From an uncultured Candidatus Saccharibacteria bacterium (GTDB lineage: Bacteria; Patescibacteriota; Minisyncoccia; Minisyncoccales; GWA2-38-27), in assembly GCA_964447515.1 (NCBI GenBank), contig CAYUSS010000004.1, forward strand, positions 532 to 64,531: a stretch of 64,000 bases of DNA, read 5' to 3'. Below, in pieces: positions 12,102 to 57,621 of this stretch (the stretch's first letter is position 1; every line of letters begins with the position of its first letter). Below the pieces are notes generated by a model. That model searched no databases and had not been told where the DNA came from. It saw only the letters and a list, made by a program, of their open reading frames with translations. Made by a program: the position numbers and the translations under genes.

Positions 12102-12138
12102 CCTTAGCGAATCAAGGTTCTGCCGAAGGCAGGTTCTT
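12102..12138 (-). repeat. AAGAACC-hairpin-GAACCTTGATTCGCYAAGG element (3' of the AMMECR1 gene)
   Basis: The minus strand reads AAGAACCTGCCTTCGGCAGAACCTTGATTCGCTAAGG. Family members at 16403, 52594 and 57581. Confidence 0.75.
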
Positions 12139-12163
12139 ATAAATTATTAATTTTTTCTATTCT

Positions 12164-12760
12164 TTATGTATATTTCTTTACTGTAAAACGATAAATTACT
12201 ATATTTTCTTTTTTTGGGTCAATTCCTCCTTTTTGACAGGCAATAGAAACCTGTTGCTCAACTGTATCTACTCCATCCAAATCTGGGAGCAAAAGCCCAG
12301 ATTTAGGCGAAGTATGTCCATTAAACACAACATCGGTTCCGCCAGGACTCCGACCCGTCCGCCGCCTTCCCTCATGGCTCCTAGAAATAGGCACTGTTTT
12401 TATTATTATACCGTATTTTTTAGGGTCAAGTTCTTTTATGTCTTTTACCAATTCTGGTTCATTTAAAATATAAACTGTATAAGAAAGATAGGGAAGTTCC
12501 TCTTTTTGAATTGGCCCAAAGCGATAATCTTCAATAGCGGCGGCAATAGCATTATAAATGATTTCCTGAGCGATATTCTCTTTAGTTGGTAAATAAGTGC
12601 CAATACAACCTCGAAGCTGTTCTTGTTTCTCAATTGTAACAAAAACACCGGATTTTTCCTTCAAAAATTCTTTTGGCAAGTTTTCAGGAGGCGAAATAAT
12701 CTTCTTTTTCCCAATATAATTTTCTACTGCTGATTTGACAAGTAAAATGTAGGAGTTCAT
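12164..12760 (-). CDS. AMMECR1 domain protein (AmmeMemoRadiSam protein A-like) with a GC-rich in-frame insert
   Basis: LRGCIGT motif and SGLLLPDL. About 24 extra residues (..SRSHEGRRRTGRSPGGTDVVFNGH..) lie between GIIIK and SGLLLP, encoded by GC-rich DNA at about 12302-12397. Confidence 0.8.
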   Translation of the reverse strand: MNSYILLVKSAVENYIGKKKIISPPENLPKEFLKEKSGVFVTIEKQEQLRGCIGTYLPTKENIAQEIIYNAIAAAIEDYRFGPIQKEELPYLSYTVYILNEPELVKDIKELDPKKYGIIIKTVPISRSHEGRRRTGRSPGGTDVVFNGHTSPKSGLLLPDLDGVDTVEQQVSIACQKGGIDPKKENIVIYRFTVKKYT

Positions 12761-12770
12761 ATTTACTGGG

Positions 12771-13070
12771 TTATCTCAATACTTGTTTTATTCTTTCAGC
12801 TTCGTTTTCTACTACTTTGCCGTCGTATTCTCCGGCGTGGTCATGAGCTGTTTTATACACAGGTCTTTTCTGGTCTAAATGAAGGTTAAAAATTATTTCG
12901 TCTTTTTCTATATCAATTTTCAAATAAAGATGAAATCTGGGATACCCGCTTCTTTCCAATGGTCGAATAAAAGATAGTTCAAATTCTTTTTGTTGTAGAA
13001 AATAATAACCGGCTCTTCTCATTAGGGTTACAGGATTTTCTTTTAAATGATTTTTAATAATAAATTGCAT
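12771..13070 (-). CDS. conserved-looking 99-aa protein of unknown function embedded in the AMMECR1/LigB/radical-SAM cluster
   Basis: Clean ORF tightly packed between cluster genes. I recognise no motif in it. Confidence 0.45.
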   Translation of the reverse strand: MQFIIKNHLKENPVTLMRRAGYYFLQQKEFELSFIRPLERSGYPRFHLYLKIDIEKDEIIFNLHLDQKRPVYKTAHDHAGEYDGKVVENEAERIKQVLR

Positions 13071-13078
13071 AAAACATT

Positions 13079-13729
13079 TTATAATAATTTAAAGTTTACA
13101 ACTAAATATCCAACCCCGAAAGGACCTTGGTAAGATAAAATTTCTGGCAGCCAATTTATTCCCGCTTCTTCTAAAATTCCTAAAAGAAAAGAAAAAGAGC
13201 GCAAGCCGCATTCTCCAGCTTCTGGATACATTTCATCTAATTTTAGAAAATTTTCAATATCTTTTTCTTTTAAAAACTTAATCAGAGCTTGGTCAAATTT
13301 AGGGCCTTGAGGATTAAAACCGTAAGGACCATCTTCTTTTAAACAGTGGGAGAGATCGCCAGAAGCAATTAAGGCGTAGTTTAATTTACGAGACCCGACC
13401 TCGTAACGAGGTCGGGTCTCGTTTTTAAGTTTTTTGTAAACTTTTTTGCCTTTTTCAAAATAAGATTTTGGAGATTCTAATCCAGTTAAATACGTTTTTA
13501 TTTCTCCTTTAAAATCTTTTGCTAAAAAATAAAGAGGAACATTAAACCCCCAATCAAGATGAGGAGAAGAGATAATTATTGCGTCGGGATTTAGTTTCAT
13601 TAATTTTTCTCCCAAAAATTCCAGGCTTTTAATAGTTTTTTCAAGTTCCTCTCTATCTTTTTCTGAGCCGACTGAAGGTAAGAGGAGAGGGGGGTGAGGG
13701 GATATAGCTGCGAAAACAATTTTTGTCAT
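13079..13729 (-). CDS. class III extradiol dioxygenase-like (LigB/Memo-like) protein with an in-frame 35-nt perfect palindrome
   Basis: N-terminal ISPHPPLLLP and SGDLSH, with EAGECG near the C-terminus. The palindrome ACGAGACCCGACCTCGT-A-ACGAGGTCGGGTCTCGT at 13388-13422 encodes ..ETRPRYEVGSR.. Confidence 0.65.
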   Translation of the reverse strand: MTKIVFAAISPHPPLLLPSVGSEKDREELEKTIKSLEFLGEKLMKLNPDAIIISSPHLDWGFNVPLYFLAKDFKGEIKTYLTGLESPKSYFEKGKKVYKKLKNETRPRYEVGSRKLNYALIASGDLSHCLKEDGPYGFNPQGPKFDQALIKFLKEKDIENFLKLDEMYPEAGECGLRSFSFLLGILEEAGINWLPEILSYQGPFGVGYLVVNFKLL

Positions 13730-13778
13730 AATATTCTAATATAATATTCTAGTATTCTTGAGAACTTGAGAATATAAT

Positions 13779-14798
13779 TTATTTTAAGATTAAATTTAAA
13801 TCTTCGCCGCACTTTGCACATTTCCCATTTTTGTCATAACGGGAAATTTGATATCCAATTCTGTTAATCATTTTTGTTTTGCATTTGGGGCAAAAAGTGT
13901 CTTCTGATTCTATTCCAGGGACATTGCCAGTATAAACATATTTCAAGCCGGCTTTTTCCCCGATATTAAATGCTTTTTTTAAGGTCTCTATTGGAGTATC
14001 AGCTAAATCTTGGAGTTTCCAGGAAATTGCTCCGCAAAATTGGCTAACATGCCAGGGAGTTTCTGAGCCAAGTTCATTTTTTATAAAGTTAGCAATATTT
14101 TTAAAAATTTCTTCTGAATCATTTAGAGTTGGAATAACCAAAGTTGTCACCTCAACCCAGATTTTTTTATTTTTTAACCGTTTTAGAATATTTAAAACTG
14201 GCTCTAGTTTTCCTCCACAATATTTCCGGTAAAATTCATCAGAAAAACTTTTTAAATCAATATTAGCAGCGTCTAAATAAGGAGAGATTAAACCAAATAA
14301 TTCTTTTGACCAAAATCCATTACTAACCCAATTATTTTTTAACCCCTCTTTTCTGGCTAATTTCATTGTATCTAAAGCATATTCTGAGAAAATCGCAGCT
14401 TCGGTGTAGGTATAGGAAATGCTTGGTAGATTTCTTTCTTTGGCAATTTGAACAATTTTTTCTGGAGAGATTTCTTCTCCCACAATTTTCCCGGTCAGCT
14501 GGGGCATTTGAGAAATATCATAATTCTGGCAGCTCCCGCATTTGAAATTACAACCAACCGTTGCTATAGACAATGATTGTGTTCCAGGCAAAAAATGGAA
14601 AAAAGGTTTCTTTTCAATTGGGTCAACATTTAAAGCACAGGCCTTTCCATAAACCAAAGAATAAAGTTTACCATTCTGGTTCTCCTTTACGCCACAAATT
14701 CCTCTTTTTCCTTCCTCAATAGCACAATAATGAGCGCAGTTCTGACATTGAACTTTTCTATTGGGTAGTTTTTTATAGAGATAAGCTTCCTTCATCAC
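13779..14798 (-). CDS. AmmeMemoRadiSam-type radical SAM enzyme (PFL-activase-like)
   Basis: CxxxCxxC cluster GCNFKCGSCQN, plus an N-terminal Cys cluster CQNCAHYC and a C-terminal zinc-ribbon CPKC...CAKC. Confidence 0.8.
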   Translation of the reverse strand: MMKEAYLYKKLPNRKVQCQNCAHYCAIEEGKRGICGVKENQNGKLYSLVYGKACALNVDPIEKKPFFHFLPGTQSLSIATVGCNFKCGSCQNYDISQMPQLTGKIVGEEISPEKIVQIAKERNLPSISYTYTEAAIFSEYALDTMKLARKEGLKNNWVSNGFWSKELFGLISPYLDAANIDLKSFSDEFYRKYCGGKLEPVLNILKRLKNKKIWVEVTTLVIPTLNDSEEIFKNIANFIKNELGSETPWHVSQFCGAISWKLQDLADTPIETLKKAFNIGEKAGLKYVYTGNVPGIESEDTFCPKCKTKMINRIGYQISRYDKNGKCAKCGEDLNLILK

Positions 14799-14841
14799 GC
14801 TTTAATTTTAACTTTTTTTATGATAAAATTCAATTGATATT

Positions 14842-15414
14842 ATGAAACAAAGACGTCGAGTTTTCATTGCTATAAATTTACCAGAAAACATAAAAAAGAA
14901 ACTGGCAGAATATCAGAGGAAATGGCCAGAATTACCTATCAGGTGGACCAAACCAGATAATATTCATATTACTTTAGTCTTCTTGGGATATATCAGAGAT
15001 GAAGAGCTTTTAGAGATTTCCAAAATTATCAAAGAAGTGGCCTCCCAACGTTCTTCATTTTCAGTTAATTTAAATAATATTTGCTATGGTCCGCCTAAAA
15101 AAATGCCGCCCAGAATGATTTGGGGAGTAGGGGCAAAGTCCGCTGAATTCGCCTCCTTAAGAGATGATTTAGATAAATTATTATTAGATTCAGAAAATAC
15201 CAATTTTTCTTCAGAGAAGAGAGAATTTTTTCCTCATATTACCTTGGGGAGAATTAGAAAATGGGAATGGCAGCGAATTGAGCCCGAAGAAAGGCCAGAA
15301 GTTAATGAAGAGATAAATTTAATTTTTTCAGTGGATTCAATAGAAATGATGGAAAGTGTATTAAAAAAAACAGGACCAGAATACACCATACTTGAATCAG
15401 TTCCATTGGGCTGA
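14842..15414 (+). CDS. thpR: RNA 2',3'-cyclic phosphodiesterase (2H family, LigT/ThpR)
   Basis: Two HxT motifs: NIHITLVFLG and FPHITLGRI. Confidence 0.85.
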   Translation: MKQRRRVFIAINLPENIKKKLAEYQRKWPELPIRWTKPDNIHITLVFLGYIRDEELLEISKIIKEVASQRSSFSVNLNNICYGPPKKMPPRMIWGVGAKSAEFASLRDDLDKLLLDSENTNFSSEKREFFPHITLGRIRKWEWQRIEPEERPEVNEEINLIFSVDSIEMMESVLKKTGPEYTILESVPLG

Positions 15415-15427
15415 TTTAGATACTAAT

Positions 15428-15464
15428 ATTCAAGGTCGGGTGTTCAAGGTTGGGTCTTGAACAT
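15428..15464 (-). repeat. GTTCAAsACCCGACsTTGAAC repeat (inverted copy)
   Basis: ATTCAAGGTCGGGTGTTCAAGGTTGGGTCTTGAACAT is the reverse complement of the element found at 27875 and 31912. Confidence 0.7.
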
Positions 15465-15481
15465 ATAATTTTATTTTATTT

Positions 15482-16939
15482 ATGAAAATACATTTTATTG
15501 GAATTGGGGGTATAGGTGTTTCGGCTCTTGCTCAATATTATTTGGCAAAAGGTCATAAAGTCAGTGGTTCTGATTTAGTTTCATCTGAAACTACTGATTT
15601 TTTAAAGAAAAAAGGAGCTAAGCTTTTTATTGGAAATCATCAGGGAAAAAATCTGCCAAAAGATGTTGATTTAGTAATTTATAGTCCGGCAATTTCAGAA
15701 AGTAACCCCGAACTTCTAAAAGTTCGCAAGTTACAGGTTTTGAGTTACCCCCAGGCATTAGGAAAGCTAACAAAAGAATATTTTACAATCGCTGTTTCCG
15801 GAACTCACGGAAAGAGTACCACTACTGCAATGATTTCTTTGATTTTAATAAAGGCAGGGCTTGATCCTACGGTAATTATTGGCACTAAATTGAAAGAATT
15901 TGGTCAAACTAATTTTAGAATAGGAAAGAGTAAGTATCTTGTTATTGAGGCAGATGAATGGCAGGCCTCTTTTTTGAATTATTGGCCTCAGATTATTATT
16001 TTAACCAATATTGAAAGAGAACATTTGGATTACTATAAAAATTTAAATCATATTCTGAGAACTTACCAGAAATTTATCGGTCATTTGTCTAAAGATGGAG
16101 TATTAGTAGTGAATGGAGAAGACAAAAATATCTCAAAACTCAAATCGAAGCCTACGGCTCGTCTACGACAGCAGAACTCAAAACCACAACTCAAAACTCA
16201 AAACTATAGTTTAAAGCAAAAAGAGGCGGAGAAATTAAGGAAAATTTTGAAAGTGCCAGGCGAACATAATGTTTACAATGCCTTAGCTGCTTTGAGCGCG
16301 GCTCGGGCTTTGAAAATTCCAGATAAAATTTCATTTAAAGTGCTCTCAGAATATAAAGGCGCCTGGCGACGTTTTGAAATAGAAAAAGCAGAAATTAGCA
16401 ATAAGAACCTCTCGCTTCGCTCGAGAACCTTGAATGTTTTCCTCGCTATGCTCGGAAAGCCATTGTCTAAAAAGATTACCATTATTTCTGATTATGCTCA
16501 TCATCCAACCGAGATAGAAGCTACTTTAAGAGCTGTCAGAGAGAAATTTCTTTACCCGCCCAAATTTTCTGGAAGAAAATTTAGGCGGTCAGGTAAAAAA
16601 ATTTGGTGCATTTTTCAGCCTCATCAATATCAAAGAACATTTTATCTTTTTCAGGATTTTGTTAAAGTTTTTAGAAAAAACCCAATTGACAAATTGATTA
16701 TCACTGATATTTATGATGTAGCCGGCAGAGAAAAAAAGAAAACAAAAAAGAAAGTGAGTTCAAAAAAAATGGTTGAAGCAATTGACAGACCTCAAACAAT
16801 TTTTTTATCAAAAGAAAAAATAATAAATTATTTAAAAAGAAATTTAAAAGGCAGGGAAGTGGTAATAATTATGGGAGCAGGGGATATATACAAGTTGAGC
16901 GAGCGACTAGCAAGCGAAACCGAGCGCCCAAAGCATTGA
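15482..16939 (+). CDS. murC: UDP-N-acetylmuramate--L-alanine ligase, carrying three different repeat-derived in-frame inserts
   Basis: IHFIGIGGIGVSALA, GTHGKSTTT, DYAHHPTEI. Inserts at about 16138-16208, 16403-16433 and 16564-16599. Confidence 0.9.
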   Translation: MKIHFIGIGGIGVSALAQYYLAKGHKVSGSDLVSSETTDFLKKKGAKLFIGNHQGKNLPKDVDLVIYSPAISESNPELLKVRKLQVLSYPQALGKLTKEYFTIAVSGTHGKSTTTAMISLILIKAGLDPTVIIGTKLKEFGQTNFRIGKSKYLVIEADEWQASFLNYWPQIIILTNIEREHLDYYKNLNHILRTYQKFIGHLSKDGVLVVNGEDKNISKLKSKPTARLRQQNSKPQLKTQNYSLKQKEAEKLRKILKVPGEHNVYNALAALSAARALKIPDKISFKVLSEYKGAWRRFEIEKAEISNKNLSLRSRTLNVFLAMLGKPLSKKITIISDYAHHPTEIEATLRAVREKFLYPPKFSGRKFRRSGKKIWCIFQPHQYQRTFYLFQDFVKVFRKNPIDKLIITDIYDVAGREKKKTKKKVSSKKMVEAIDRPQTIFLSKEKIINYLKRNLKGREVVIIMGAGDIYKLSERLASETERPKH

Positions 16940-17086
16940 ACGCTCGTTCCTCACTCGCTGCCGCTCGCTTGGAGTTTTCCACTTAATAACTTGACAAAAA
17001 TTAAACAAAAAAGCGATAATGAAATAAGCCCGACAGACCGGGCTAGGTCGAGAGAAATAAAATATTAATAAAATTTAAAAAAATCT

Positions 17087-17239
17087 ATGACAACAACAAT
17101 TATTTGGATAGTGGTAGCAGTTGTAGCAGTCGGAATAATAATTTATCTTCTATCCGGGAAAAAAGGCAAGAAAGGGGGTCCTACCGCGCCGCCAACACCG
17201 CCAACACCGCCAACACCGCCAGAGGGTCCAACGATGTAA
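17087..17239 (+). CDS. small membrane protein, 50 aa, TM plus (PPT)n tail
   Basis: MTTTIIWIVVAVVAVGIIIYLLSGKKGKKGGPTAPPTPPTPPTPPEGPTM, followed by a strong terminator. Preferred over track ORF 17104..17286 in another frame. Confidence 0.45.
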   Translation: MTTTIIWIVVAVVAVGIIIYLLSGKKGKKGGPTAPPTPPTPPTPPEGPTM

Positions 17240-17264
17240 CTTTTATTACAAAAGTAATTTGTTC

Positions 17265-17299
17265 TAAAAAAATGCTCGTCTTTTGACGAGCATTTTTTT
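17265..17299 (+). terminator. intrinsic terminator
   Basis: AAAAAATGCTCGTC-TTTT-GACGAGCATTTTTT. Confidence 0.7.
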
Positions 17300-17424
17300 A
17301 GATAACCTTCCTCGTAGGCTTTTACTCTGTTATCAAATACAAAAGTTTGCTATTATGAATAAAAAAGAAATTGGAAATTGGGAAATCCTAATTTCAAGTT
17401 TTAAATTTCTAATTTCAAAAACGT

Positions 17425-18552: not shown

Positions 18553-18601
18553 ACATTCGAATTATGATGTGAATTATATGCGAATTATAATGCGAATTTT
18601 G

Positions 18602-18627
18602 AAAAGCCCGCCTGCGGCGGGCTTTTT
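18602..18627 (+). terminator. intrinsic terminator / attenuator-like hairpin inside the liv cluster
   Basis: AAAAGCCCGCC-TGC-GGCGGGCTTTTT, preceded by four GAATTAT repeats at 18558-18598. Confidence 0.65.
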
Positions 18628-18667
18628 CGTTTGGAAGAAGGGCAAATTTATGATAATCTGAAACAAT

Positions 18668-30654: not shown

Positions 30655-30749
30655 TTCAGCGTATAGTTCAGCGCAAATTCAGCGATAAAAGGTTGGTAAC
30701 GCTGAACAAACGCTGATATCTACGCTGAACTACGCTGAACTACGCTGAA
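30655..30749. repeat. phased heptamer array: 3x TTCAGCG then 5x CGCTGA(A/T), ending 22 nt before murG
   Basis: TTCAGCG at 30655, 30667 and 30678. CGCTGAA/T at 30700, 30711, 30723, 30733 and 30743. Spacing is 10-12 bp, and the last three form a perfect 10-bp tandem CTACGCTGAA. Confidence 0.8.
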
Positions 30750-30770
30750 TTATCTAACACCCTATACGGT

Positions 30771-31889
30771 ATGAAGATTCTTTTCACCGGTGGTGGAACT
30801 GCCGGACATATTTTTCCCATAATTGCTATTGCCAGAGAGATTAAAAGAAATTATCCTCAGGGAAAATTTCGATTTTTTTACCTTGGCCCAAAAGATAAAT
30901 TTTTTGGGAACCTTCTTTCTAAAGAAGGGATTGAAGTAAAAACAATTTTAGCTGGGAAAATTAGAAGATATTTTTCTTTGCGTAATATTGTTGATATTCT
31001 ATTTAAATTTCCAATAGGAATCGTTCAGGCATTTTCTCATGTTTTTGTAATTTCTCCTGACCTTATTTTCAGCAAAGGAGGGTATGGTTCGGTGTCCACG
31101 GTTATGGCTGGCTGGTTACTTCTTACGCCAATTTTTTTACACGAATCAGATACTGCTCCTGGATTGGCAAATAAAATAGCCGCTAAGCTTGCTTTAGAAA
31201 TTTTTATCTCGTTTCCCATAAAAGATACTGAATATTTTCCAGCTAAAAAAATGATTTCAATTGGCAACCCTATCAGGAGAGAAATTTTAGAAGGTTCTAA
31301 GGAAGAAGCTAAAAAAATATTTAAATTGACAGGAGAAAAACCAGTAATTTTTATTTTAGGCGGCTCTCAAGGAGCTCAGAGAATAAATGATAGAATATTG
31401 GTGATTTTGTCAGAGCTTTTGGAGAGTTTTGAGGTAATTCATCAAACCGGTAGAAATAATTTTGAGCAAGTAAAAGCCGAGGCAGAGGTGGTAATGAAAA
31501 AGAATTTAAAAAAATATTATCATCCCTTAGCTTTTTTAAACGAAGAAGAGCTATCTTATGCTTATCAAGCAACTGATTTCATTATTAGCAGAGCCGGAGC
31601 AGGAACTATTTTTGAAATTGCAGCTTTAGGGAAACCAAGCATTTTAGTGCCTTTGCCTAAGGCGGCCCAGAATCATCAAGTAAAAAATGCTTATGTTTTT
31701 GCAAAAAATGGCGGCGCTATAGTAATAGAGGAAAAGAATTTCACTCCCCACTTTGTTTTAGAAAAATTGAAATATTTATCTTCCCAACCTAAAAAATTAA
31801 AAGAAATGGCAGAAGGAACTAAAGACTTTTCCAAACCGGACGCAGCCAGAATAATCGGAGAATATATTACCAGTTATTTAATTCAGTAG
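30771..31889 (+). CDS. murG: undecaprenyldiphospho-muramoylpentapeptide beta-N-acetylglucosaminyltransferase
   Basis: GGGTAGHIFP, and ISRAGAGTIFE...QNHQ.KNA. Confidence 0.9.
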   Translation: MKILFTGGGTAGHIFPIIAIAREIKRNYPQGKFRFFYLGPKDKFFGNLLSKEGIEVKTILAGKIRRYFSLRNIVDILFKFPIGIVQAFSHVFVISPDLIFSKGGYGSVSTVMAGWLLLTPIFLHESDTAPGLANKIAAKLALEIFISFPIKDTEYFPAKKMISIGNPIRREILEGSKEEAKKIFKLTGEKPVIFILGGSQGAQRINDRILVILSELLESFEVIHQTGRNNFEQVKAEAEVVMKKNLKKYYHPLAFLNEEELSYAYQATDFIISRAGAGTIFEIAALGKPSILVPLPKAAQNHQVKNAYVFAKNGGAIVIEEKNFTPHFVLEKLKYLSSQPKKLKEMAEGTKDFSKPDAARIIGEYITSYLIQ

Positions 31890-46936: not shown

Positions 46937-47123
46937 ATGGAAATTAGACGTATAGAAAATAGAAATTGGTAATGGAAAACAAAGGAGGGCATCTGGATAT
47001 CGGGAGATCCGGGACTAGGAAATCAGGTTATCAGGAGATCCGGAGAAAATTAGTTCCTGATATCCGGATTCCCGGATATCCTTTTCCATTTTCCAATTTC
47101 CATTACCAATTTCTAATTTCCAT
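46937..47123. repeat. long imperfect inverted repeat of about 190 nt filling the dnaK-dnaJ spacer
   Basis: The left arm ATGGAAATTAG...AAATTGGTAATGGAAA...GGATATCGGGAGATCCGG pairs with the right arm CCGGATTCCCGGATATCC...TTTCCATTACCAATTTCTAATTTCCAT. Confidence 0.7.
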
Positions 47124-47141
47124 ATAACTAATTTCTAAAAC

Positions 47142-48242
47142 ATGATGGATTACTACAAAACATTAGGCATTTCCCATAACGCTTCGTCAGCAGAAATCAA
47201 AAAGGCCTATTACGAATTAGCTCACAAATATCATCCTGATAAAGGAGGAGACGAAAAGAAAATGAAAGAAATAAACGAGGCCTATCAAGTTCTTTCTGAT
47301 AAAGAAAAAAAATCTCAGTATGATAAATTTGGAAGGGTTTTTGAGGGGGGTGGTTCAGGTCCTGGAACAGCGCCCGGATTTGATTTTAATTGGTTTTGGG
47401 GAAAATCTCCTAGAAAAGGTCCAGATTTGGAATTTGATTTTGAAGATTTAGGTGATATGTTTGAAGATTTTTTTGGTTTTGGAGGAAGAGAAAAACAAAA
47501 AAGAGATATTAAAAAAGGCAGGAATATTAAAATTGATATAGAAATTCCCTTAGAAGAAACCCTAAAAAGTATAACCAAGGAAGTTTCTATGTATAAGGCA
47601 ATTCAATGTCCTCGCTGTGGAGGCAAAGGAGCCGAACCGGGTACCCCTTTAAATGAATGTTTTTCCTGTCGCGGCACCGGCCAGGTTCAGCAGGTAAAAA
47701 GAACTTTTTTGGGTTCATTTACCCGTTGGGCTGTTTGTCCTGAATGTAAAGGCGAGGGCTCTAAGCCTGAGAAGCCCTGTAATGTTTGTAAGGGAGAGGG
47801 GAGAATTAAAGCAGAGGAAGATATCAAAATTTTTATTCCAGCCGGAGTTGATTCAAACCAGGTAATTAAAATTAGCGGCAAAGGAGAAGCCGGCAAAAAA
47901 GGAGGAAAGCCAGGAGATTTATATGTCAGAATTTTGGTAAAAGAACATTCCACTTTTGTTAGAAGAGGTGACGATTTATATATTTCCGTTCCTTTAACTT
48001 TTTCCCAGGTCTCTTTAGGAGATGAAATTGAGGTAGCAACATTAGAAGGAAGCAAATTTTCACTCAAAATTTCTTCAGGGACTGAGTCGGGGAAAGTGTT
48101 GCGAATTTCAGGAAAAGGTATTCCTCATTTCTCAAGCTATGGAAAAGGGAATCTCTATGTTGAATTGGTTGTCAAGACCCCAAAACGGTTGACCAAAAAA
48201 CAAAAAGAATTATTGAAGAAATTGAAAGAGGAGGGTCTCTAA
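47142..48242 (+). CDS. dnaJ: molecular chaperone DnaJ
   Basis: J domain with HPD (YHPDKGG), G/F region, and four CxxCxGxG zinc motifs. Confidence 0.95.
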
Positions 48243-49265: not shown

Positions 49266-49328
49266 TTAATTCATATAGAACTTAAACAAAAAAATTTTGT
49301 TCTTTGAAAACTAAAAAAGGAGAGAGAA

Positions 49329-50051: not shown

Positions 50052-50090
50052 TAAGCTGTATTGGGAAAAAGATACTACTCTTCATCTTTT

Positions 50091-50161: not shown

Positions 50162-50166
50162 CAAAA

Positions 50167-50198
50167 GAATCGCCAAAACGGCGATTTTTTGGTAGAAT
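50167..50198 (+). promoter_or_regulatory. terminator hairpin fused to extended -10 (TGGTAGAAT), 6 nt before the maf ATG
   Basis: GAATCGCC-AAAAC-GGCGATT plus a T-run, TGGTAGAAT at 50190-50198, ATG at 50205. Confidence 0.55.
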
Positions 50199-50204
50199 GA
50201 ATAT

Positions 50205-50786: not shown

Positions 50787-50824
50787 TTTGATTTATTTAT
50801 TAATTTTTGCTATAAAATAATAAT

Positions 50825-52024: not shown

Positions 52025-52145
52025 AATAAAGTAATATCAAAAATCAAAATACAAAAATTTTGAAATTTGTTAATTCTAATTTTTAATATGTAATTTTGCT
52101 GTCGTAGACGACCCGTAGGGTCCTATTTGATATTTGATTTTTATT

Positions 52146-52595
52146 ATGAGAGTTATTCTTCTTCAGGATATAGAAAATATAGGAAAGAAATATGAAATTA
52201 AGGAGGTCAAAGACGGCTATGCCCAGAATTTTTTGATTCCTAAAAGATTAGTTAAACCGGCAACGAAAGAAGCTTTAAAATGGTTAGAAACCCAAAAAGA
52301 AATTAGAGAAAAGAAAGCCGAAAAAGAGCTGAAAGAAGCTCAGAAAATAGTTTCAGAGATTGATGGAGTAGAAATAGTGATTCCAGTTAAAATTGGCGAA
52401 AAAGAACAGTTCTTTGAAAAAATAAATTCCCAAAAAATTTCTGAGAAATTAAAAGAAAAAGGATTTGAAATTAAAAAAAGCCAAATTGGTTTGGAGCAAC
52501 CCATTGAGGAACTCGGTGAGTTTCCGATAAAGGTCAAATTTGAACATAATTTAGAAGCGGAAATAAGAGTAATAGTTACAGAAGAAAAAAAGTAA
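52146..52595 (+). CDS. rplI: 50S ribosomal protein L9
   Basis: MRVILLQDIENIGKKYEIKEVKDGYAQNFLIP is the canonical L9 N-domain. Start at ATG 52146. Confidence 0.9.
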   Translation: MRVILLQDIENIGKKYEIKEVKDGYAQNFLIPKRLVKPATKEALKWLETQKEIREKKAEKELKEAQKIVSEIDGVEIVIPVKIGEKEQFFEKINSQKISEKLKEKGFEIKKSQIGLEQPIEELGEFPIKVKFEHNLEAEIRVIVTEEKK

Positions 52596-52632
52596 GAACC
52601 TCGCCTTCGGCGAGAACCTTGATTCGCCAAGG
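52594..52632 (+). repeat. AAGAACC-hairpin-GAACCTTGATTCGCYAAGG element (3' of rplI)
   Basis: AAGAACCTCGCCTTCGGCGAGAACCTTGATTCGCCAAGG begins at the rplI stop codon. Confidence 0.75.
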
Positions 52633-52661
52633 TATAAATAAACATATTGCGGCTTCGCCGC

Positions 52662-52725
52662 ATAATTGCTTCGCTCGGTTGAAAAAGAAAAATAAACTTT
52701 TCTTTTTCTCTCTCGTTTGCAATTA
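52662..52725 (+). promoter_or_regulatory. conserved 64-nt leader motif (outer stem AATTGC/GCAATT, inner 11-bp purine/pyrimidine hairpin) upstream of pyrG
   Basis: GAAAAAGAAAA 52681-52691 pairs with TTTTCTTTTTC 52698-52708. About 80 percent identical to 60952-61015, upstream of the nuclease gene. Confidence 0.6.
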
Positions 52726-52738
52726 TAATCTTGAATTA

Positions 52739-54385
52739 ATGCCTAAGTATATTTTTGTTGCCGGCGGGGTAATGTCCGGTATTGGCAAGGGAGTGGCAGT
52801 AGCTTCAATTGGAAGAATTTTAAAGAGTAAAGGATTTAAGGCAACAGCAATTAAAATTGACCCTTATATTAATATTGATGCTGGCACCATGAACCCTATT
52901 GAGCATGGAGAAGTTTTTGTGACCGATGACGGGATTGAATGCGACCAAGATGTAGGGAATTATGAAAGATTTTTAGATGAGGATATTTATAGTGATAATT
53001 ATATAACCACTGGCAAGGTTTATCAGACGGTAATTAAACGCGAAAGAAATTTGGAATATAAAGGTAAATGCGTAGAAGTTGTTCCGGATATTCCAAATGA
53101 GGTAATTTCAAGAATTAAGAGAGTGTCTAGAAAGACAAAAGCAGATTTTGTCTTAATTGAAATCGGAGGAACAGTAGGAGAATATCAAAATATGCTTTTT
53201 TTGGAAGCCGCTAGAATGATGAAACTTAGCCATTCAAAAGATGTGCTTTTTATTTTAGTTAGTTATTTGCCAATTCCTAAGAAGATTGGCGAGATGAAAA
53301 CCAAACCAACTCAGTATGCTGCTAGAACTTTAAATTCAGCAGGTATTCAGCCGGATATAATTCTTGCTCGTTCAACAGTTTCCTTAGATGACCTTCGGAA
53401 AAGAAAAATTTCAGTTTTTTGTAATGTAGCTCCTCAAGATGTTATTTCTGCTCCGGATGTTGAATCAATTTATGAAATTCCGGTTAATTTTGAAAAAGAA
53501 AATTTAGGCAATCGAATTTTAAAAAGATTTGATTTGAAACCAACAAAAAGTGATTTAAGAAAATGGAAAAATTTAGTAAAGACAATCAGAAATGCCAAAA
53601 AGCCAGTTAAGATTGGTATCGTTGGGAAATATTTTGAGACCGGCAAGTTTACTTTAACGGATTCTTATATCTCCATAATTGAGGCGGTAAAACACGCTTC
53701 TTATTTTTTTAAAAGAAAACCAGAAATTTCTTGGTTATCAGCAGGAAAGTATGAAAAAGATCCTAGTTCAGTTGAAGATTTAAAAAATTATGACGGCATA
53801 ATTATTCCTGGAGGGTTTGGGACCAGAGGAATAGAAGGAAAAATAAAGGCAATTGAATTTTGTCGAAAAAATAAAATTCCCTTTTTAGGGCTTTGTCTGG
53901 GAATGCAACTGGCCGTAATTGAATTTGCTCGCAATGTTTGCAAAATTAAAAAAGCTTCCTCAACTGAATTTTCAAAGAGTAAAGAACCAGTGATTGATGT
54001 TATGCCAAAACAAAAAGTTCTTTTAAAAGAAAAAAAATATGGAGGAACAATGAGATTGGGAGCTTATAACTGTAAAATAAAGCCCCAAACCATTAGTTTT
54101 AGGGCATACAAGGATAAAGGAAAAAGCGATATCATGGTATCTGAGCGTCATCGCCATCGCTACGAGCTAAATAATAACTACAGAAAGGTTTTAGAAAAAT
54201 ATGGATTAGTGATAGCAGGTGTTAATCCTGAAAAGGATTTAGTAGAAATTATTGAAATTAAAAACCATCCCTTTTTTGTGGCTTCTCAATTTCATCCGGA
54301 ATTTAAATCAAGACCATTAGACCCTCATCCTCTTTTTAGAGAATTTATTAGAGCCTCTATCGAGGTTCGACATTTACAACCTTAG
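52739..54385 (+). CDS. pyrG: CTP synthase
   Basis: [18 protein letters not shown], glutaminase region GLCLGMQ and ..FHPEF... Start at ATG 52739. The 3' end overlaps convergent rpmA by 29 nt. Confidence 0.93.
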
Positions 54386-54635
54386 CTATCCGTTGAGATT
54401 TATCAAAACATTTTTTCCGGGATGTTCTAAATTTAACCAGGCCTCCTTTTACTGCATAAAGAGTATCATCGTTTCCTCGTTTAACGTTTTTACCTGGTAA
54501 AAATTTTGTTCCTCTTTGACGAATAATTATCATTCCCGGTTTAACTTTTTGACCCTCAAAAAGTTTAACGCCAAGATATTTCGGCAAAGAATCCCTTCCT
54601 AATTTTGTTGTTCCTGATGATTTTGTCTTAGCCAT
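54357..54635 (-). CDS. rpmA: 50S ribosomal protein L27
   Basis: GRDS.PKYLGVK...[21 protein letters not shown]. No rplU is visible immediately upstream. Confidence 0.9.
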
Positions 54636-54643
54636 ATTTTATT

Positions 54644-54898
54644 ATGTTAACAAAACTTATCAAATTTGTCCACCCTGTTAAATTTGCTTCGCAACTATTT
54701 AACAGGGTAAAAAAATATCAAACAGATATAATATTGGTTACTGGGGTTATTTTAATTTCTTTACTTTCCTTTGCCCTTGGATATATAACAGCTAATTATC
54801 AAGAAAAGATACCTTTAAAATTTGAATATGAAGAAACAAAAAGTAGCAATAATTGGAGCGGGAATATGTGGTCTTTATTTAGCTTGGAAACTTTCTGA
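54644..54898 (+). CDS. questionable small TM ORF
   Basis: 84-aa ORF with one TM helix. Its 5' part is a palindromic repeat (54672-54708), its 3' end overlaps the next gene by 77 nt, and the rpmA promoter must also lie here. Confidence 0.3.
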   Translation: MLTKLIKFVHPVKFASQLFNRVKKYQTDIILVTGVILISLLSFALGYITANYQEKIPLKFEYEETKSSNNWSGNMWSLFSLETF

Positions 54899-55841
54899 GA
54901 AAGGACATAAAGCTTGGATTTTTGAAAAAAAGAAAAAAATTGGGCAGGAGGTTTGTTCTGGACTTATTTCTCAAAGAATTTTAGAGTTTATCCCGCACCT
55001 TTCTTGCGCTACTTTCAGTAATTTTGACGCCGAAGGCGTCAAGCATAAGAAAGGTACGGGATTTATTCCAGAAAGCCCTAAATTAATTAAAAACCAAATA
55101 AATTTTGCCTTTTTACATTTTCCCCAAAAAACTATAAAACTAAGGTTTTCTAAAGATTTTTTTGTAATAAGTCATTTTGAATTGGATAGATTGACAGCTA
55201 ATTTAGCCATAAAAGCCGGGGCTAAAATTATTTTAAATCATGATATGTCTTCCATACCTGAAGGGTTTGATAAAGTGATTGGCTGCGATGGGGCTGGTTC
55301 TTTTGTCAGAAGGAATTTAGGTCTTCCAGATCCGGGTTTCCGAATGGGAATTCAGGGTTTTGTTGAACAAAAAACTTTTGAGAATTATGTAGAAACTTGG
55401 CCCTGTGAAAAAGGAGGGTTTATCTGGAAAATCCCCCGGGGAAATGAAATAGAATATGGTATAATTACAAAACCCCAAGAAGCGAAAAAACTTTTTGATA
55501 GTTTTTTAGAGAAAAATAAAATTTCTTTAAAAGAAAAAAAATCAAGAATAATTCCCCAGGGTTTTCTAATTCCAGCAAATCCTTTGGTTACTCTTTGCGG
55601 AGACGCCGCTGGATTGACTAAACCCTGGTCAGGAGGCGGAATAATTTGGGGATTAACAGCAGCTGAAATGCTTCTAAACGCTTTCCCTGATTTTTTATCT
55701 TATCGTAAATTAATGAAAAGATTTTTCCTTCCTAAAATTATTTTATCAAAAAACATTTCTAAATTAATTTATTTTTTAGGATATAAAATGCCCTGGTTAT
55801 TACCTTCAAAAAATAAAATAGAATCTGATTTTTTAATTTAA
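54822..55841 (+). CDS. FAD-dependent oxidoreductase (geranylgeranyl reductase-like) with an in-frame nested-hairpin insert
   Basis: VAIIGAGICGLYLA dinucleotide fold and GDAAGL. Insert 54997-55055: outer stem ACCTTTCTT/AAGAAAGGT, inner TTGACGCC-GAA-GGCGTCAA. Confidence 0.7.
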   Translation: MNMKKQKVAIIGAGICGLYLAWKLSEKGHKAWIFEKKKKIGQEVCSGLISQRILEFIPHLSCATFSNFDAEGVKHKKGTGFIPESPKLIKNQINFAFLHFPQKTIKLRFSKDFFVISHFELDRLTANLAIKAGAKIILNHDMSSIPEGFDKVIGCDGAGSFVRRNLGLPDPGFRMGIQGFVEQKTFENYVETWPCEKGGFIWKIPRGNEIEYGIITKPQEAKKLFDSFLEKNKISLKEKKSRIIPQGFLIPANPLVTLCGDAAGLTKPWSGGGIIWGLTAAEMLLNAFPDFLSYRKLMKRFFLPKIILSKNISKLIYFLGYKMPWLLPSKNKIESDFLI

Positions 55842-55842
55842 T

Positions 55843-56544
55843 ATGACAAGAGAAACCAAAAAAATTCCATTTCATTTAGGAATTATTATGGATGGAAATC
55901 GGAGATGGGCAAGAAAAAAAGGACTGCCTAACCTTGAAGGACATCGTAAAGGGTCAGAAATATTTACCAAAATAGGGGAGTGGGTTTTAAAAAGAGGAGT
56001 TAAAATTTTAACTGTTTATGCTTTTTCTATTGAAAATTGGAAGAGAAGCAAAATAGAAGTGAATTATTTAATGCGGCTTTTTAATCAATCTTTGAGTAGA
56101 AAAAATCTTAAAAAACTTCATCAAAAAGGAATAAAATTACAGATAATTGGCCAAAAAGAAAGATTATCTAAAAAACTTCAAAAGAAAATAAAAGAAGCCG
56201 AACAAATGACCAAAAATAATAAAAAAGGAATTTTAAATTTAGCAATTTCTTACGGCGGAAGACCGGAAATTATTCAGGCAGTTAAAAATATTATTAAAAA
56301 GAAAACTCCTCCCAATAAAATTACTGAAGATTTAATTAATCAAAATCTTTGGACAGCCGGCTTGCCTTACCCCGATTTAATTATCCGTACCGCGGGGGTC
56401 CAACGTCTTTCTAATTTTTTAACTTGGCAGTCAGCTTATTCTGAATTTTATTTTACCAAAACATATTGGCCAGATTTTACAGAAAAAGACTTAGATAAGG
56501 CCTTAGCAGATTTCGCTCTCCGCCAAAGAAGATTCGGAAGATAA
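55843..56544 (+). CDS. uppS: undecaprenyl diphosphate synthase
   Basis: HLGIIMDGNRRWA, and RTAGVQRLSNFL.WQ..YSEF. Confidence 0.92.
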   Translation: MTRETKKIPFHLGIIMDGNRRWARKKGLPNLEGHRKGSEIFTKIGEWVLKRGVKILTVYAFSIENWKRSKIEVNYLMRLFNQSLSRKNLKKLHQKGIKLQIIGQKERLSKKLQKKIKEAEQMTKNNKKGILNLAISYGGRPEIIQAVKNIIKKKTPPNKITEDLINQNLWTAGLPYPDLIIRTAGVQRLSNFLTWQSAYSEFYFTKTYWPDFTEKDLDKALADFALRQRRFGR

Positions 56545-56548
56545 TAAT

Positions 56549-57247
56549 ATGATAAAAATTGAGATTTTAGGAACAGCTGCTAATTGGTCAAAGCCGTTTA
56601 AAACCAGAAAGATAAAAAAGTTTACTTCATGCTTTTTTAAAACAGATTTCAAATTTCAGATAGATAGCGGCAATTCCTGGGATAAAAGAAAAATAGATTA
56701 TTTACTGATTTCTCATTTACATATAGACCATATTGGAAAGATTAAGACCTATCCCAGAAATATTACAATTTGTCTACCGTCTAAAACCTTTTTAAATTCT
56801 TTGGACTCTCAAAGAAATTTTTTGTTTTTAAAGAAAAAAATAAGAATTGGCAAGACAAGAATAGAGCCATTTTTAGTTCATCATTCAAAGAAAACTTTAA
56901 CTTTTGGTTACAAAATTAGTTTTCAAAATTCTTCTTTTTTATGGCTTCCGGATTATTTTTCGCCCTTTAATTACTCTTCTTTCAAAAATTGTGATATCTG
57001 GTTTTTGGGTGCTTCCTCTTTTAAAAGAGATGTTAAACATCAGGGGTATCTTTTGGGCCATAAGTCAATTTTTAATTCCCTTTTAGAATTCAGAGAAAGA
57101 AAAATTTTCCCCAAATCAAAAAAGATTTATCTTATCCATTTCGGCCTTTCAATGTTTCCTTTAAATAAAAAGGTCAGTTTTCTTCAAAATCAATTTCCCG
57201 AATACAAAATGATTTCCACTTTTGACGAAATGAAAATTAATTTGTAG
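56549..57247 (+). CDS. MBL-fold metallo-hydrolase
   Basis: The HxHxDH motif occurs as SHLHIDHIG. Short 232-aa form. Confidence 0.6.
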   Translation: MIKIEILGTAANWSKPFKTRKIKKFTSCFFKTDFKFQIDSGNSWDKRKIDYLLISHLHIDHIGKIKTYPRNITICLPSKTFLNSLDSQRNFLFLKKKIRIGKTRIEPFLVHHSKKTLTFGYKISFQNSSFLWLPDYFSPFNYSSFKNCDIWFLGASSFKRDVKHQGYLLGHKSIFNSLLEFRERKIFPKSKKIYLIHFGLSMFPLNKKVSFLQNQFPEYKMISTFDEMKINL

Positions 57248-57418
57248 TTTTTTTATAGTAAGAATCAGGGCTGTGAATTTCTCCCCTTGACAGGATTTTT
57301 GGATAATATAATATTATTTTTAACAGCCAACGGAGCTCGTCGACCCGTAACTGTTCTTAAAAGGGCTTAAAAAAGCTGAAGGAAAATTTTTAAATTTTCC
57401 TTGAAGCCAGGTCCTAAA

Positions 57419-57559
57419 ATGACTAAAGAAAAATTTTATTCGGCCTTAGATGAAGAAGAAGAATTTACCGGAGATGAAAGCGATTTAGAAAAGAAAGAAG
57501 AAGATGATGATGATGAAGAAGAAGCTGGCTTTTTAGACGAAGACGAGGAAGATATCTAA
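57419..57559 (+). CDS. 46-aa highly acidic small protein
   Basis: MTKEKFYSALDEEEEFTGDESDLEKKEEDDDDEEEAGFLDEDEEDI. Preceded by a structured leader of about 100 nt and followed by the AAGAACC element. Too short for the ORF track. Confidence 0.4.
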   Translation: MTKEKFYSALDEEEEFTGDESDLEKKEEDDDDEEEAGFLDEDEEDI

Positions 57560-57580
57560 GAACTGAAGAAAGATTGAAAT

Positions 57581-57621
57581 AAGAACCTCTCGCTTCGCTC
57601 GAGAACCTTGATTCGCTAAGG
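57581..57621 (+). repeat. AAGAACC-hairpin-GAACCTTGATTCGCYAAGG element
   Basis: AAGAACCTCTCGCTTCGCTCGAGAACCTTGATTCGCTAAGG. Its first 31 nt are identical to the copy inside murC (16403-16433). Confidence 0.8.

Follow-up and report, generated by a model that had tools for sequence, protein, structure and literature searches.

Related repeat systems

Among the closest described systems are the promoter-early stem-loop (PeSL) cassettes of T4-type phages, for which both promoter and terminator activities have been measured; they are located in phage hyperplastic regions, flanking ORFans, and their stems are typically GGGG...CCCC (PMC2839356, PMC4122927). The sequences described here resemble PeSLs in the combination of a small repeated intergenic stem-loop with a sigma-70-consensus promoter, in the many copies per genome and in the indels and reshuffling between relatives (PMC2839356, PMC4122927). 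This correspondence (intergenic stem-loop, sigma-70 consensus and indels) is an analogy of architecture only, with no sequence relationship. The present family differs in that it is found in the chromosome of cellular Patescibacteria beside housekeeping genes, forms tandem arrays, enters coding sequence in frame and has a variable hairpin next to a putative promoter. A hyperplastic-region location was not found, as the window (the whole 64,000-nt stretch of DNA analyzed) is bacterial chromosome with murC, rplI, pyrG and tRNAs. Putative mobile promoters are also comparable, being outward-facing promoter sequences copied before unrelated genes; the survey that described them is older than the genomes of the Candidate Phyla Radiation, to which Patescibacteria belong (PMC3488235).

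The REP/BIME/REPIN sequences of proteobacteria are likewise short GC-rich imperfect palindromes situated after genes in high copy number, with a proposed role in mRNA 3'-end stabilisation and no target duplication. However, REP stems keep their sequence within a genome and are arranged in inverted pairs associated with a RAYT transposase, whereas here the stem is variable, the flanks are conserved and tandem copies are direct; neither a conserved palindrome nor inverted pairs were found among the 72 hairpin sequences and the direct tandem arrays. Rickettsia palindromic elements (RPE), attributed to Ogata and co-workers in 2000, are reportedly about 100-150 bp long and are said to lie in frame in conserved protein genes, adding a peptide and leaving the gene intact, as well as between genes. 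RPEs are not known to carry a promoter or to lie flush between stop and start codons. The likeness lies in a short palindrome-containing repeat of a reduced genome with in-frame peptide insertion and additional intergenic copies; the phylum is another one, and a sequence relationship is not expected. BOX elements of Streptococcus pneumoniae have a modular build, which is paralleled here by the alternative boxes that make up types A, B and C, and they are not known to supply stop and start codons. Correia elements of Neisseria are promoter-bearing; the terminal inverted repeats and the TA duplication that characterise them were not seen in the present family.

The sequences analyzed here are best explained, with a probability of roughly 60%, as copies of a mobile intergenic cassette made of a hairpin and a promoter, in which the activity of the promoter, the function of the hairpin and the way the unit moves are inferred.

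The four copies in the window

An initial annotation had reported four copies of a hairpin element bracketed by GAACC, and the four sequences were found exactly at the positions it gave. All of them are confirmed as real, far beyond chance: GAACCTTGATTCGCYAAGG occurs 3 times in the window (0.05 expected) and AAGAACC-N(8-24)-GAACCTTGA 4 times (0.00 expected), and a profile search of the window revealed zero copies beyond these four. The three hairpins described pair as proposed, and the blocks flanking the hairpin are indeed direct repeats (GAACC...GAACC). The element had been delimited only in its 5' two-thirds; the A/T spacer, TATAAT and CTTGAATTA, which form a promoter-like 3' half, were missed. 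The three extragenic copies had been placed just after stop codons, which is correct for the rplI copy, since it overlaps the stop, and less so for the other two, which start 24 nt and 20 nt downstream. The features are the following:

12075-12139, minus strand: full type A unit with AMMECR1 (stop 12164-12166) on one side and the HHH_8 gene (ATG 12055-12057) on the other, nhmmer E=3.6e-17
12132-12139, minus strand: TAAGAACC
12121-12131, minus strand: hairpin TGCCTTCGGCA
12116-12120, minus strand: GAACC
12110-12115, minus strand: -35-like TTGATT
12102-12109, minus strand: CGCTAAGG
12085-12090, minus strand: -10-like TATATT (-35/-10 spacer of 19 nt)
12076-12084, minus strand: CTTGAATTA
16403-16468, plus strand: complete type B unit of 66 nt, in frame in murC (codons K308-S329, KNLSLRSRTLNVFLAMLGKPLS), without -10 or -35 half; begins with AAGAACC
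16410-16424, plus strand: hairpin TCTCGCTTCGCTCGA
16425-16436, plus strand: GAACCTTGAATG
about 16437-16458, plus strand: second hairpin
16459-16468, plus strand: GCCATTGTCT
52593-52738, plus strand: type A unit filling the rplI-pyrG spacer
52593-52595, plus strand: TAA, the rplI stop
52601-52613, plus strand: hairpin TCGCCTTCGGCGA
52614-52632, plus strand: GAACC-TTGATT-CGCCAAGG
about 52643-52721, plus strand: nested insertions, ~80 nt, with hairpin TGCGGCTTCGCCGCA at 52648-52662
52724-52729, plus strand: TATAAT
52730-52738, plus strand: CTTGAATTA
52739-52741, plus strand: pyrG ATG
57580-57644, plus strand: full type A unit at the 3' side of an acidic micro-ORF of 46 codons (57419-57559), profile search E=4.3e-19
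57580-57587, plus strand: TAAGAACC
57588-57602, plus strand: hairpin TCTCGCTTCGCTCGA
57603-57607, plus strand: GAACC
57608-57613, plus strand: TTGATT, followed by a 16-nt spacer
57630-57635, plus strand: TATAAT
57636-57644, plus strand: CTTGAATTA
57649-57679: separate intrinsic terminator called by the terminator scan, directly 3' of the 57.6-kb unit

The nested hairpin of the 52.6-kb unit recurs at the same position in L043. At the gathering threshold, Rfam revealed two tRNAs and no other family in the whole window, and all matches around the 57.6-kb unit were far under the gathering score (best 24.9 bits, against 70).

A modular repeat family

The four window sequences are members of a family of interspersed repeats, modular and mobile, in Nealsonbacteria-type Patescibacteria, a group for which literature searches returned no promoters, repeats or mobile DNA like this family. 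A scan of public genomes with a 19-mer revealed at least 103 loci; the matches listed come from about 40 assemblies, nearly all of Nealsonbacteria, Minisyncoccales or other Patescibacteria, with up to 8-9 loci per assembly and copies that are frequently in tandem and frequently at contig ends or N gaps. Abundance across lineages is patchy and lineage-specific. The full type A unit (57-70 nt) consists, from 5' to 3', of TAAGAACC, a variable GC hairpin, GAACC-TTGATT-CGCTAAGG, an A/T spacer, TATAAT and CTTGAATTA. Conservation, estimated on 36 copies not picked by the search word, was 97-100% in TAAGAACC, 92-100% in CTTGATTCG and 78-100% in CTTGAA, and lower in the CTAAG spacer (67-92%). An imperfect palindrome, CCTTG-N6-TAAGG, adjoins the promoter-like boxes and is missing from common variants. 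The family has three modular types (A, B and C); types B and C are without the promoter half, yet propagate, type B being found also in L009, L039, L083 and L102.

TIGR guide-RNA arrays consist of two alternating 8-12-nt repeats with about 9-nt spacers, in 36-nt units, and adjoin a Tas (Nop-domain) gene (PMC12045711). This class was ruled out for the present family: its units measure 57-70 nt, usually stand alone, show strong sequence conservation and contain no variable spacers of 9 nt.

Gain and loss at orthologous sites

L110 shares the window's synteny, with a MurC identity of 66%. It contains arrays in two spacers that in the window are element-free and only 50 nt and 44 nt long, and its orthologous AMMECR1/HHH_8 spacer is without the window's copy. 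The element is mobile, because a spacer that contains it in one genome can be without it in the orthologous position of another. The filled/empty junction reads caattgata/ttATG in the window and caattgata-TAAGAACC...CTTGAA-ttATG in L110; no target-site duplication was found at this one pair, a weak comparison given the diverged species, with an ambiguity of at most 1 nt. The terminal inverted repeats of MITEs were not found either, the ends TAAGAACC and CTTGAATTA having only TAA/TTA in common. One L110 array separates the ligT ATG from the native promoter region, and therefore a promoter must be supplied or read-through tolerated at this site.

These filled and empty sites largely refute a fixed regulon signal, that is, a conserved promoter plus operator for one transcription factor, vertically inherited at each site. 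The promoter-like boxes beside the imperfect palindrome and the strong conservation of the consensus across species would agree with such a signal; nevertheless, sites are non-orthologous between related genomes, tandem arrays and broken assemblies occur, whole units lie within coding sequences, the palindrome is missing in common variants and the genes that follow the units are housekeeping genes with no function in common (FtsA, PGK, RF, L35, L21, EF-Ts, RNase III, GAPDH and PilC), which makes this explanation scarcely credible.

Hairpin covariation and strand

The stem variation covaries, as the initial annotation had expected: 76% of the outer 4 pairs were Watson-Crick, against 49% in column-preserving permutations in which the 3' halves were dealt among sequences, and 0 of 1000 permutations reached the observed value. 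When the partner was slid, pairing was 19-22% Watson-Crick. All four Watson-Crick pair types are present at hairpin position 2, and 72 different hairpin sequences lie between the conserved flanks among the matches listed. Perfect palindromes could also come from a palindrome-generating mutational process, and not from selection for structure.

Covariation is among the points that speak for the interpretation first given to these copies, an RNA element on the sense strand, in the 3' UTR of the upstream gene, acting as terminator or mRNA 3'-end stabiliser, together with the location of most co-oriented cases, which begin at the upstream stop or no more than a few tens of nt away from it, and with the good folding of the 5' half of the 52.6-kb copy (z = -4.1). 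However, the sense-strand hairpin tail is GAACCTTGATTC, with 4 T in 12 and no U tract, and sense-strand G.U wobble shows no excess (10 vs 16). Canonical hairpin plus T-run terminators exist separately from the units, one of them directly after the 57.6-kb unit. Among the matches listed, 12 arrays lie between divergent genes, without a co-oriented upstream gene, and 8 contexts are anti-oriented. In addition, the second hairpin is gone in common variants, CTAATG and CTATTG among them, the 57.6-kb and murC copies have weak folding z-scores as whole units, and the complementary strand folds better in 39 of the 72 unique hairpins and worse in 3 (p = 6e-9 in a sign test that overstates independence, because the hairpins are related by descent). 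A sense-strand intrinsic terminator was rejected, since the tail is GAACCTTGATTC and the terminator scan called no unit on the element strand. The sense-strand 3'-UTR reading is thus very improbable; the dispersed repeat family ("REP-like unit"), the covariation and the murC insertion that accompanied it have stood.

The same scan marked the hairpin together with GGTTCTTAtt in 4 of 4 window copies, each time on the opposite strand from the element, and on the complementary strand the 12 nt that follow the hairpin contain 6.7 T on average. The hairpin may accordingly be imagined as acting on that strand, either as an antisense terminator or insulator (hairpin, then GGUUCUUAUUU) or as a single-stranded DNA hairpin for an HUH-type mobilising enzyme. 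The greater stability of the complement and the lack of target duplication at the single filled/empty pair point the same way, as do the complement-strand loops, CGAAG or GCGAAGC with tandem G.A mismatches; GCGAAGC is an unusually stable DNA minihairpin. Set against this, shared descent of the hairpins inflates the sign test, and most of the arrays among the matches listed have no antisense gene to terminate, so that an opposite-strand action is considered rather unlikely. It concerns the role of the hairpin only and is compatible with the mobile cassette.

Promoter-like half and gene context

The TTGATT-16 nt-TATAAT arrangement is a candidate sigma-70 promoter, with TTGACA-like and TATAAT-like hexamers within the 16-18 nt separation of this type. 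Of 102 copies among the matches listed, 67 had a -35/-10 spacer of 16 nt, 13 one of 15 nt and 10 one of 17 nt. The -10 profile was T91 A90 T93 A94 (A69) T100 in the 102 copies among the matches listed and T97 A92 T97 A94 (A44) T94 in the 36 word-independent copies. A consensus promoter scan flagged this arrangement in the 57.6-kb unit with 10/12 matches, on a high background (34-37 hits vs ~22 expected per 6.5 kb). The three type A units of the window are poor promoter test cases: one faces a terminator, another has a 19-nt spacer and in the third -35 and -10 are ~80 nt apart.

Gene context was analyzed with crude longest-ORF calls. Among the matches listed, 54 arrays were co-oriented with both neighbours vs 8 anti-oriented to both, and 13 faced a convergent gene. 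In 24 of 91 copies, the element TAA closed, in frame, an ORF of 60 codons or more, and in 29 copies an ORF of that size opened with an ATG 0-9 nt downstream of CTTGAA, the distances peaking at 2 and 5 nt (all among the matches listed). Native -10 boxes in the window are located 6-12 nt 5' of the ATG and a Shine-Dalgarno-like motif precedes only about 6 of 60 window genes; an ATG 2-9 nt after CTTGAA, as is often seen, fits such a Shine-Dalgarno-poor genome. These start codons and the short native leaders are the indirect signs of transcription that would begin about 7 nt 3' of the -10 box.

These data also bear on a purely selfish hairpin repeat, which would spread under mere tolerance in intergenic DNA, from which no transcription would start and in which TTGATT/TATAAT would be incidental to A/T-rich DNA or serve mobilisation. 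The -10 box is equally intact with or without a following gene (5.36 of 6 matches in start-adjacent copies, 5.10 in internal tandem copies and 5.45 in all others), and therefore its conservation is not creditable to selection at gene-proximal sites. The non-promoter blocks TAAGAACC and CTTGAATTA are conserved equally; a promoter alone does not account for how well TAAGAACC, GAACC and CTTGAATTA are conserved. A selfish repeat would also agree with the copies that face terminators or convergent genes or lie within coding sequence, with the spread of types B and C without the promoter half and with the patchy, lineage-specific abundance. It accounts poorly for the classic weak fifth position of the -10 profile, the spacer peak at 16 nt, the orientation bias (54 vs 8 among the matches listed), the start codons at a fixed distance matching the host's native -10-to-ATG geometry and the L110 array that splits the native promoter region from the ligT ATG. 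This explanation is doubtful, though it deserves serious consideration.

In-frame insertions

The murC copy is in frame from K308 onward, as first described, and identical to the 57.6-kb copy over AAGAACCTCTCGCTTCGCTCGAGAACCTTGA. This 31-nt identity holds; the true insertion is a variant unit of 66 nt (22 codons), and it is missing from every homologue (gap in 22, and gap against PDB MurC). Recent movement, which had been deduced from the identity, does not follow, because across genomes, among the matches listed, TCTCGCTTCGCTCGA ranks with the three most frequent hairpin variants. Elsewhere, whole units are in frame in LepA (21-aa gap vs PDB 5imq), in a MurF-like ligase and in the TopA N-terminus. 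The RPE-like behaviour, an in-frame repeat in conserved protein genes with the ORF kept open, was thus found in MurC, LepA, MurF-like and TopA.

Proposed model and significance

The mobile hairpin-plus-promoter cassette is proposed on the observed family membership, hairpin covariation, orthologous gain and loss, tandem arrays, in-frame insertions, orientation bias and stop/start geometry. The cassette would be copied into A-rich intergenic spots without target-site duplication, would amplify locally into tandem arrays and would be tolerated mainly if co-oriented with the neighbouring genes. The TAA of TAAGAACC can act as stop codon of the upstream gene, and CTTGAATTA abuts or overlaps the next start codon; the hairpin sequence drifts with pairing retained, and the hairpin would serve as insulator, RNA-end structure or structure recognised during mobilisation. 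From the promoter, the downstream gene may be transcribed into an mRNA with a very short leader or none, the normal arrangement in this genome. Intragenic units would survive only if the frame stays open, the promoter-less type B unit of murC presumably having added 22 residues to a variable loop. A bolder and quite tentative version takes the cassette as self-propagating gene punctuation (stop, hairpin, promoter and leaderless start) that might seed new transcription units all over the ultra-small genomes of Nealsonbacteria-type Patescibacteria and write new peptide segments into essential proteins, with a hairpin read in antisense or as single-stranded DNA and mobilised by an enzyme. The mobiliser in this version would be a putative structure-specific enzyme, which may need no target duplication.

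The family accounts for recurrent contig breaks and N gaps in Nealsonbacteria-type MAGs and generates false TTG-start ORFs (for example, 52619-54385), and the extra peptide loops in MurC, LepA, MurF and TopA matter for annotation and structure-based inference. If the promoter reading is true, the family would provide a portable, phylum-native promoter and a view of gene starts in Shine-Dalgarno-poor organisms, and a mobile cassette could rewire transcription in genomes with almost no regulators.

The repeat unit and its copies in the window

The four copies of an AAGAACC-hairpin element described in the initial annotation were found where it had placed them, with the hairpins pairing as reported and the murC copy reading in frame. 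The element as first delimited was real but too short, because the full unit (type A) spans 57-70 nt. In 126 copies lined up among the matches listed, the order is (A/T)TAAGAACC, a variable hairpin, GAACC-TTGATT-CGCTAAGG, an A/T spacer, TATAAT and CTTGAA(T/A)TA, with TTGATT and TATAAT resembling -35 and -10 boxes. In the window (35% GC), GAACCTTGATTCGCYAAGG occurs three times against 0.05 expected from shuffles, and AAGAACC-N(8-24)-GAACCTTGA four times against 0.00 expected. When the 64 kb were searched with a profile HMM of 94 units, no copy beyond these four was detected. MurC homology and source records place the window in a Nealsonbacteria-type Patescibacteria genome obtained from JGI metagenomes (samples 3300031553, 3300031554 and 3300031864).

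Repeat units in the window
12075-12139 (-): type A unit
16403-16468 (+): promoter-less variant (type B unit) inside murC
52593-52738 (+): type A unit whose -35 and -10 parts are separated by nested hairpin insertions of about 80 nt
57580-57644 (+): type A unit

The nested insertions of the 52.6-kb unit (52643-52721) include the hairpin TGCGGCTTCGCCGCA (52648-52662), which separates the spacer from the -10 box; a CTTCGCTCGG motif and an A-run/T-run palindrome come after it. This hairpin occurs at the identical position in the public-genome locus L043; nested insertions were also recorded in L043 and L097, and in L110, a relative with the same synteny as the window, the third unit of an array (~8090-8170) carries a long insertion in place of the hairpin-to--35 stretch. 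GC hairpins seem to have inserted repeatedly into one another in these genomes. The 57.6-kb unit is part of a self-contained mini-gene (57287-57679) with a predicted strong promoter (TTGACA-16-TAATAT, 57287-57314), an extremely acidic ORF of 46 codons (57419-57559, MTKEKFYSALDEEEEF...DEDEEDI), the repeat unit and a predicted 14-bp bidirectional terminator (57649-57679).

Other repeats were observed in the window. Two copies of a ~35-nt direct repeat (gggcaactcattcgaatccaagccccggag), at ~612-650 and ~1551-1590, flank the ORF 695-1348, each beside a GC hairpin, and could delimit an inserted segment; the repeat contains a T-loop-like string (TTCGAATCC), although no tRNA was called. Short tandem or iterated motifs precede genes at ~30710-30770 (ctacgctgaa three times, before the gene at 30771), ~47080-47140 and ~17360-17424 (aatttcc/aatttct-type iterations, before the genes at 47142 and 17425), and may be binding-site arrays.

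Distribution in public genomes

A scan of public genomes, one per species, with a 19-mer search word has revealed at least 103 matching loci, distributed over at least about 40 assemblies; a single assembly has up to 8-9 of the matches listed. All but four of the listed loci are in metagenome-assembled genomes of Patescibacteria (labelled Nealsonbacteria, Minisyncoccales, Paceibacterota or generically Saccharibacteria), a group included in the Candidate Phyla Radiation; one listed locus on the Patescibacteria side is in a contig binned as Gammaproteobacteria. The four matches in other phyla lack every flanking feature, which is consistent with chance. Head-to-tail arrays are frequent (four units in L035, three in L097, several in L063), and units often lie at contig ends or beside N runs, as expected of an assembly-breaking repeat. 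CSMAG_2648 and CSMAG_2698 have an identical copy in common (L062 and L080). The loci around murC in relatives (53-66% identity), 200 kb in total, gave a single partial match, so that abundance is patchy and lineage-specific. Literature searches did not find such an element described in Patescibacteria. At the gathering threshold, Rfam returned two tRNAs only for the whole window, excluding membership of an Rfam family, and at the E-value threshold only noise was obtained around the 57.6-kb unit.

Conserved blocks and promoter likeness

Since the search word itself fixes 19 positions, block conservation was measured in 36 near-full copies not matching the 19-mer.

Conservation of blocks in the 36 non-matching copies (unless indicated)
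TAAGAACC: 97-100%
CTTGATTCG: 92-100%
CTAAG, between the TAAGAACC/CTTGATTCG blocks and the spacer: 67-92%
-10 box: T97 A92 T97 A94 A44 T94 (%)
CTTGAA: 78-100%
TTA, unit end: 83-98% (non-tandem copies)

Among the matches listed, TTGATT and TATAAT are 16 nt apart in 67 of 102 units, the other main distances being 15 nt (13 units) and 17 nt (10 units). This spacing and the block conservation are, by sequence, the geometry and information profile of a putative sigma-70 promoter, an architecture reported to be broadly conserved in bacteria, including one Candidate Phyla Radiation representative (PMC12641261). The best-supported reading of the family, with a probability of about 0.6, is that of a mobile, modular intergenic cassette composed of a hairpin and a putative promoter. 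Three points limit it to this level: the -10 box is equally intact with or without a following gene, the units of the window are poor test promoters and the promoter is predicted from sequence. No difference in -10 integrity was found between copy classes, so that its conservation is not attributable to selection on this box specifically at gene-proximal copies. Of the three type A units of the window, one points towards a terminator and the others are poor in promoter geometry. A purely selfish repeat that resembles a promoter only incidentally is the main rival and is considered rather unlikely.

The variable hairpin

Among the matches listed, 72 distinct sequences were found between the GAACC repeats. 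As the hairpin register was inconsistent in the MAFFT alignment, pairs were counted by script from the hairpin ends. The outer four positions were 76% Watson-Crick, compared to 49% when the 3' halves were dealt among sequences (0 of 1000 permutations reached the observed value) and 19-22% when the partner was slid by 1-3 nt; at position 2, GC, CG, TA and AT are all used. Pairing is thus kept, and not sequence, in line with the initial annotation, which had noted that the stems differ between copies but always pair.

The sense strand shows neither a U tract after the hairpin nor an excess of wobble pairs (G.T 10 versus A.C 16), and the terminator or 3'-UTR RNA originally proposed for that strand is not sustained. 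The complementary strand is more stable in 39 hairpins and less stable in 3; TC/CT mismatches of the sense strand become tandem G.A on it, its loops are CGAAG or GCGAAGC, and its hairpin is followed by GGTTCTTAtt, being flagged by a terminator scan in all four window copies. In the variants GAATC...GATTC (L041) and GAGCC...GGCTC (L048) the direct GAACC repeats become a longer stem. A second hairpin, CCTTG...TAAGG, forms a perfect UUCG hairpin in L110; it was rejected as a defining structure because it is destroyed in the common CTAATG, CTATTG and TTAATG variants. Folding z-scores of whole units were unremarkable, save for the 5' half of the 52.6-kb copy. The hairpin could be an antisense insulator, an RNA-end protector or a structure recognised in mobilisation.

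Mobility and insertions in coding sequences

The gene order of L110 is that of the window, with 66% MurC identity. Arrays of three to four units in its radical-SAM/LigB spacer and of three units in its radical-SAM/LigT spacer correspond to element-free spacers of 50 and 44 nt in the window, and the AMMECR1/HHH_8 copy of the window is absent from L110. The flanks of the LigT site align base for base (caattgata/ttATG in the window versus caattgata, TAAGAACC...CTTGAA, ttATG in L110), and no target duplication longer than 1 nt was found in this one filled/empty comparison. Solitary copies show only an A-rich preference upstream (RAWA before TAAGAACC); a target-site motif beyond it was discarded. 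Whole type A units are also present in frame in LepA (antisense, a 21-residue gap versus Thermus EF4, 5imq), a MurF-like ligase (sense) and the TopA N-terminus of L104 (antisense).

The MurC protein contains a 22-residue insertion (KNLSLRSRTLNVFLAMLGKPLS) flanked by RRFE and DYAHHP, a point at which the PDB alignment is interrupted too. It is a gap in 22 homologues. The corresponding 66 nt (16403-16468) are a complete type B unit, formed by AAGAACC, a hairpin, GAACCTTGAATG, TTT, a second hairpin, AA and GCCATTGTCT, in which the -35 and -10 half is absent; L009, L039, L083 and L102 have such units in tandem arrays together with type A units. A metagenome scan found no murC relative above 70% identity by which to date the insertion, which was carried only by identical population contigs (L001-L003). 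The 31-nt identity between the murC and 57.6-kb copies is real, but it does not date the event because this hairpin variant is among the three commonest of the family.

A DNA hairpin encodes a second in-frame insertion in murC (16550-16594, LYPPKFSGRKFRRSG), a gap versus PDB MurC; CCGCC (16556-16560) and GGCGG (16584-16588) pair to enclose AAATTTTCTggaAGAAAATTT. An almost identical peptide (LYPPKFSKGKLRRA) is found at that site in the homologues P0002, P0003, P0014, P0020, P0062 and P0068, and not in others; it may be another hairpin family invading coding sequences or an old insertion with losses. A small conserved ORF of 45-50 codons with no Pfam match directly follows murC in the population of the window (window 17087-17239; L001 11606-11758) and in the three relatives examined (L107, L109 and L110).

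Among known systems, the promoter/stem-loop (PeSL) cassettes of T4-type phages are closest in architecture (PMC2839356, PMC4122927), and the family fits the concept of "mobile promoters" (PMC3488235). BOX-like and REP-like traits are also present; the "REP-like unit" first suggested is supported in that this is a dispersed repeat family, and the defining tests of REP/REPIN failed. Rickettsia palindromic elements, which insert in frame into genes, are closest in behaviour because of the in-frame insertions. A MITE was rejected (terminal inverted repeats and target duplication are both absent), as was a TIGR or CRISPR-like array (wrong unit size, no variable spacers, solitary copies).

Genomic context and coding ends

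According to crude longest-ORF gene calls, both neighbouring genes run in the direction of the array in 54 cases among the matches listed and against it in 8; a further 13 arrays face a convergent gene, and 12 are located between divergent genes. An element or array forms the whole stop-to-start spacer in at least 12 loci. Genes downstream of units encode FtsA, phosphoglycerate kinase, a release factor, L35, L21, EF-Ts, RNase III, GAPDH and PilC, unrelated housekeeping functions that rule out a regulon; a regulon operator is likewise excluded by non-orthologous sites, tandem arrays and coding-sequence copies. A split release-factor gene in L027 was discarded, the upstream ORF being ribosomal protein L31.

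In 29 copies among the matches listed, an ORF of at least 60 codons opens with an ATG placed 0-9 nt past CTTGAA, the preferred distances being 2 nt (CTTGAATTATG) and 5 nt. A Shine-Dalgarno-like motif precedes only about 6 of 60 window genes, and the -10 boxes native to the window, in many cases TGnTAGAAT, are found 6-12 nt upstream of the ATG, commonly right after a canonical terminator. The element spacing thus copies the normal leaderless or short-leader arrangement of the host, and this layout implies that window mRNAs would be mostly leaderless or very short-leader.

In 24 of 91 first copies among the matches listed, an ORF of at least 60 codons ends in frame at the TAA of the unit. Some other ORFs enter the unit and terminate within it, as does the radical-SAM ORF of L110, whose stop is a TGA within the hairpin (8279-8290). 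In L104, TopA gains a 26-residue N-terminal extension from the antisense strand of the unit, its new ATG lying immediately outside the unit. The TopA and radical-SAM cases illustrate that the repeat can donate coding ends. In the window, the ORF called from TTG 52619 (52619-54385) begins within the repeat unit and is an artefact; the CTP synthase domain occupies it only from residue 43 on, and pyrG truly starts at the ATG at 52739. In genomes of this kind, automated annotation may take over N-terminal extensions from the repeat.
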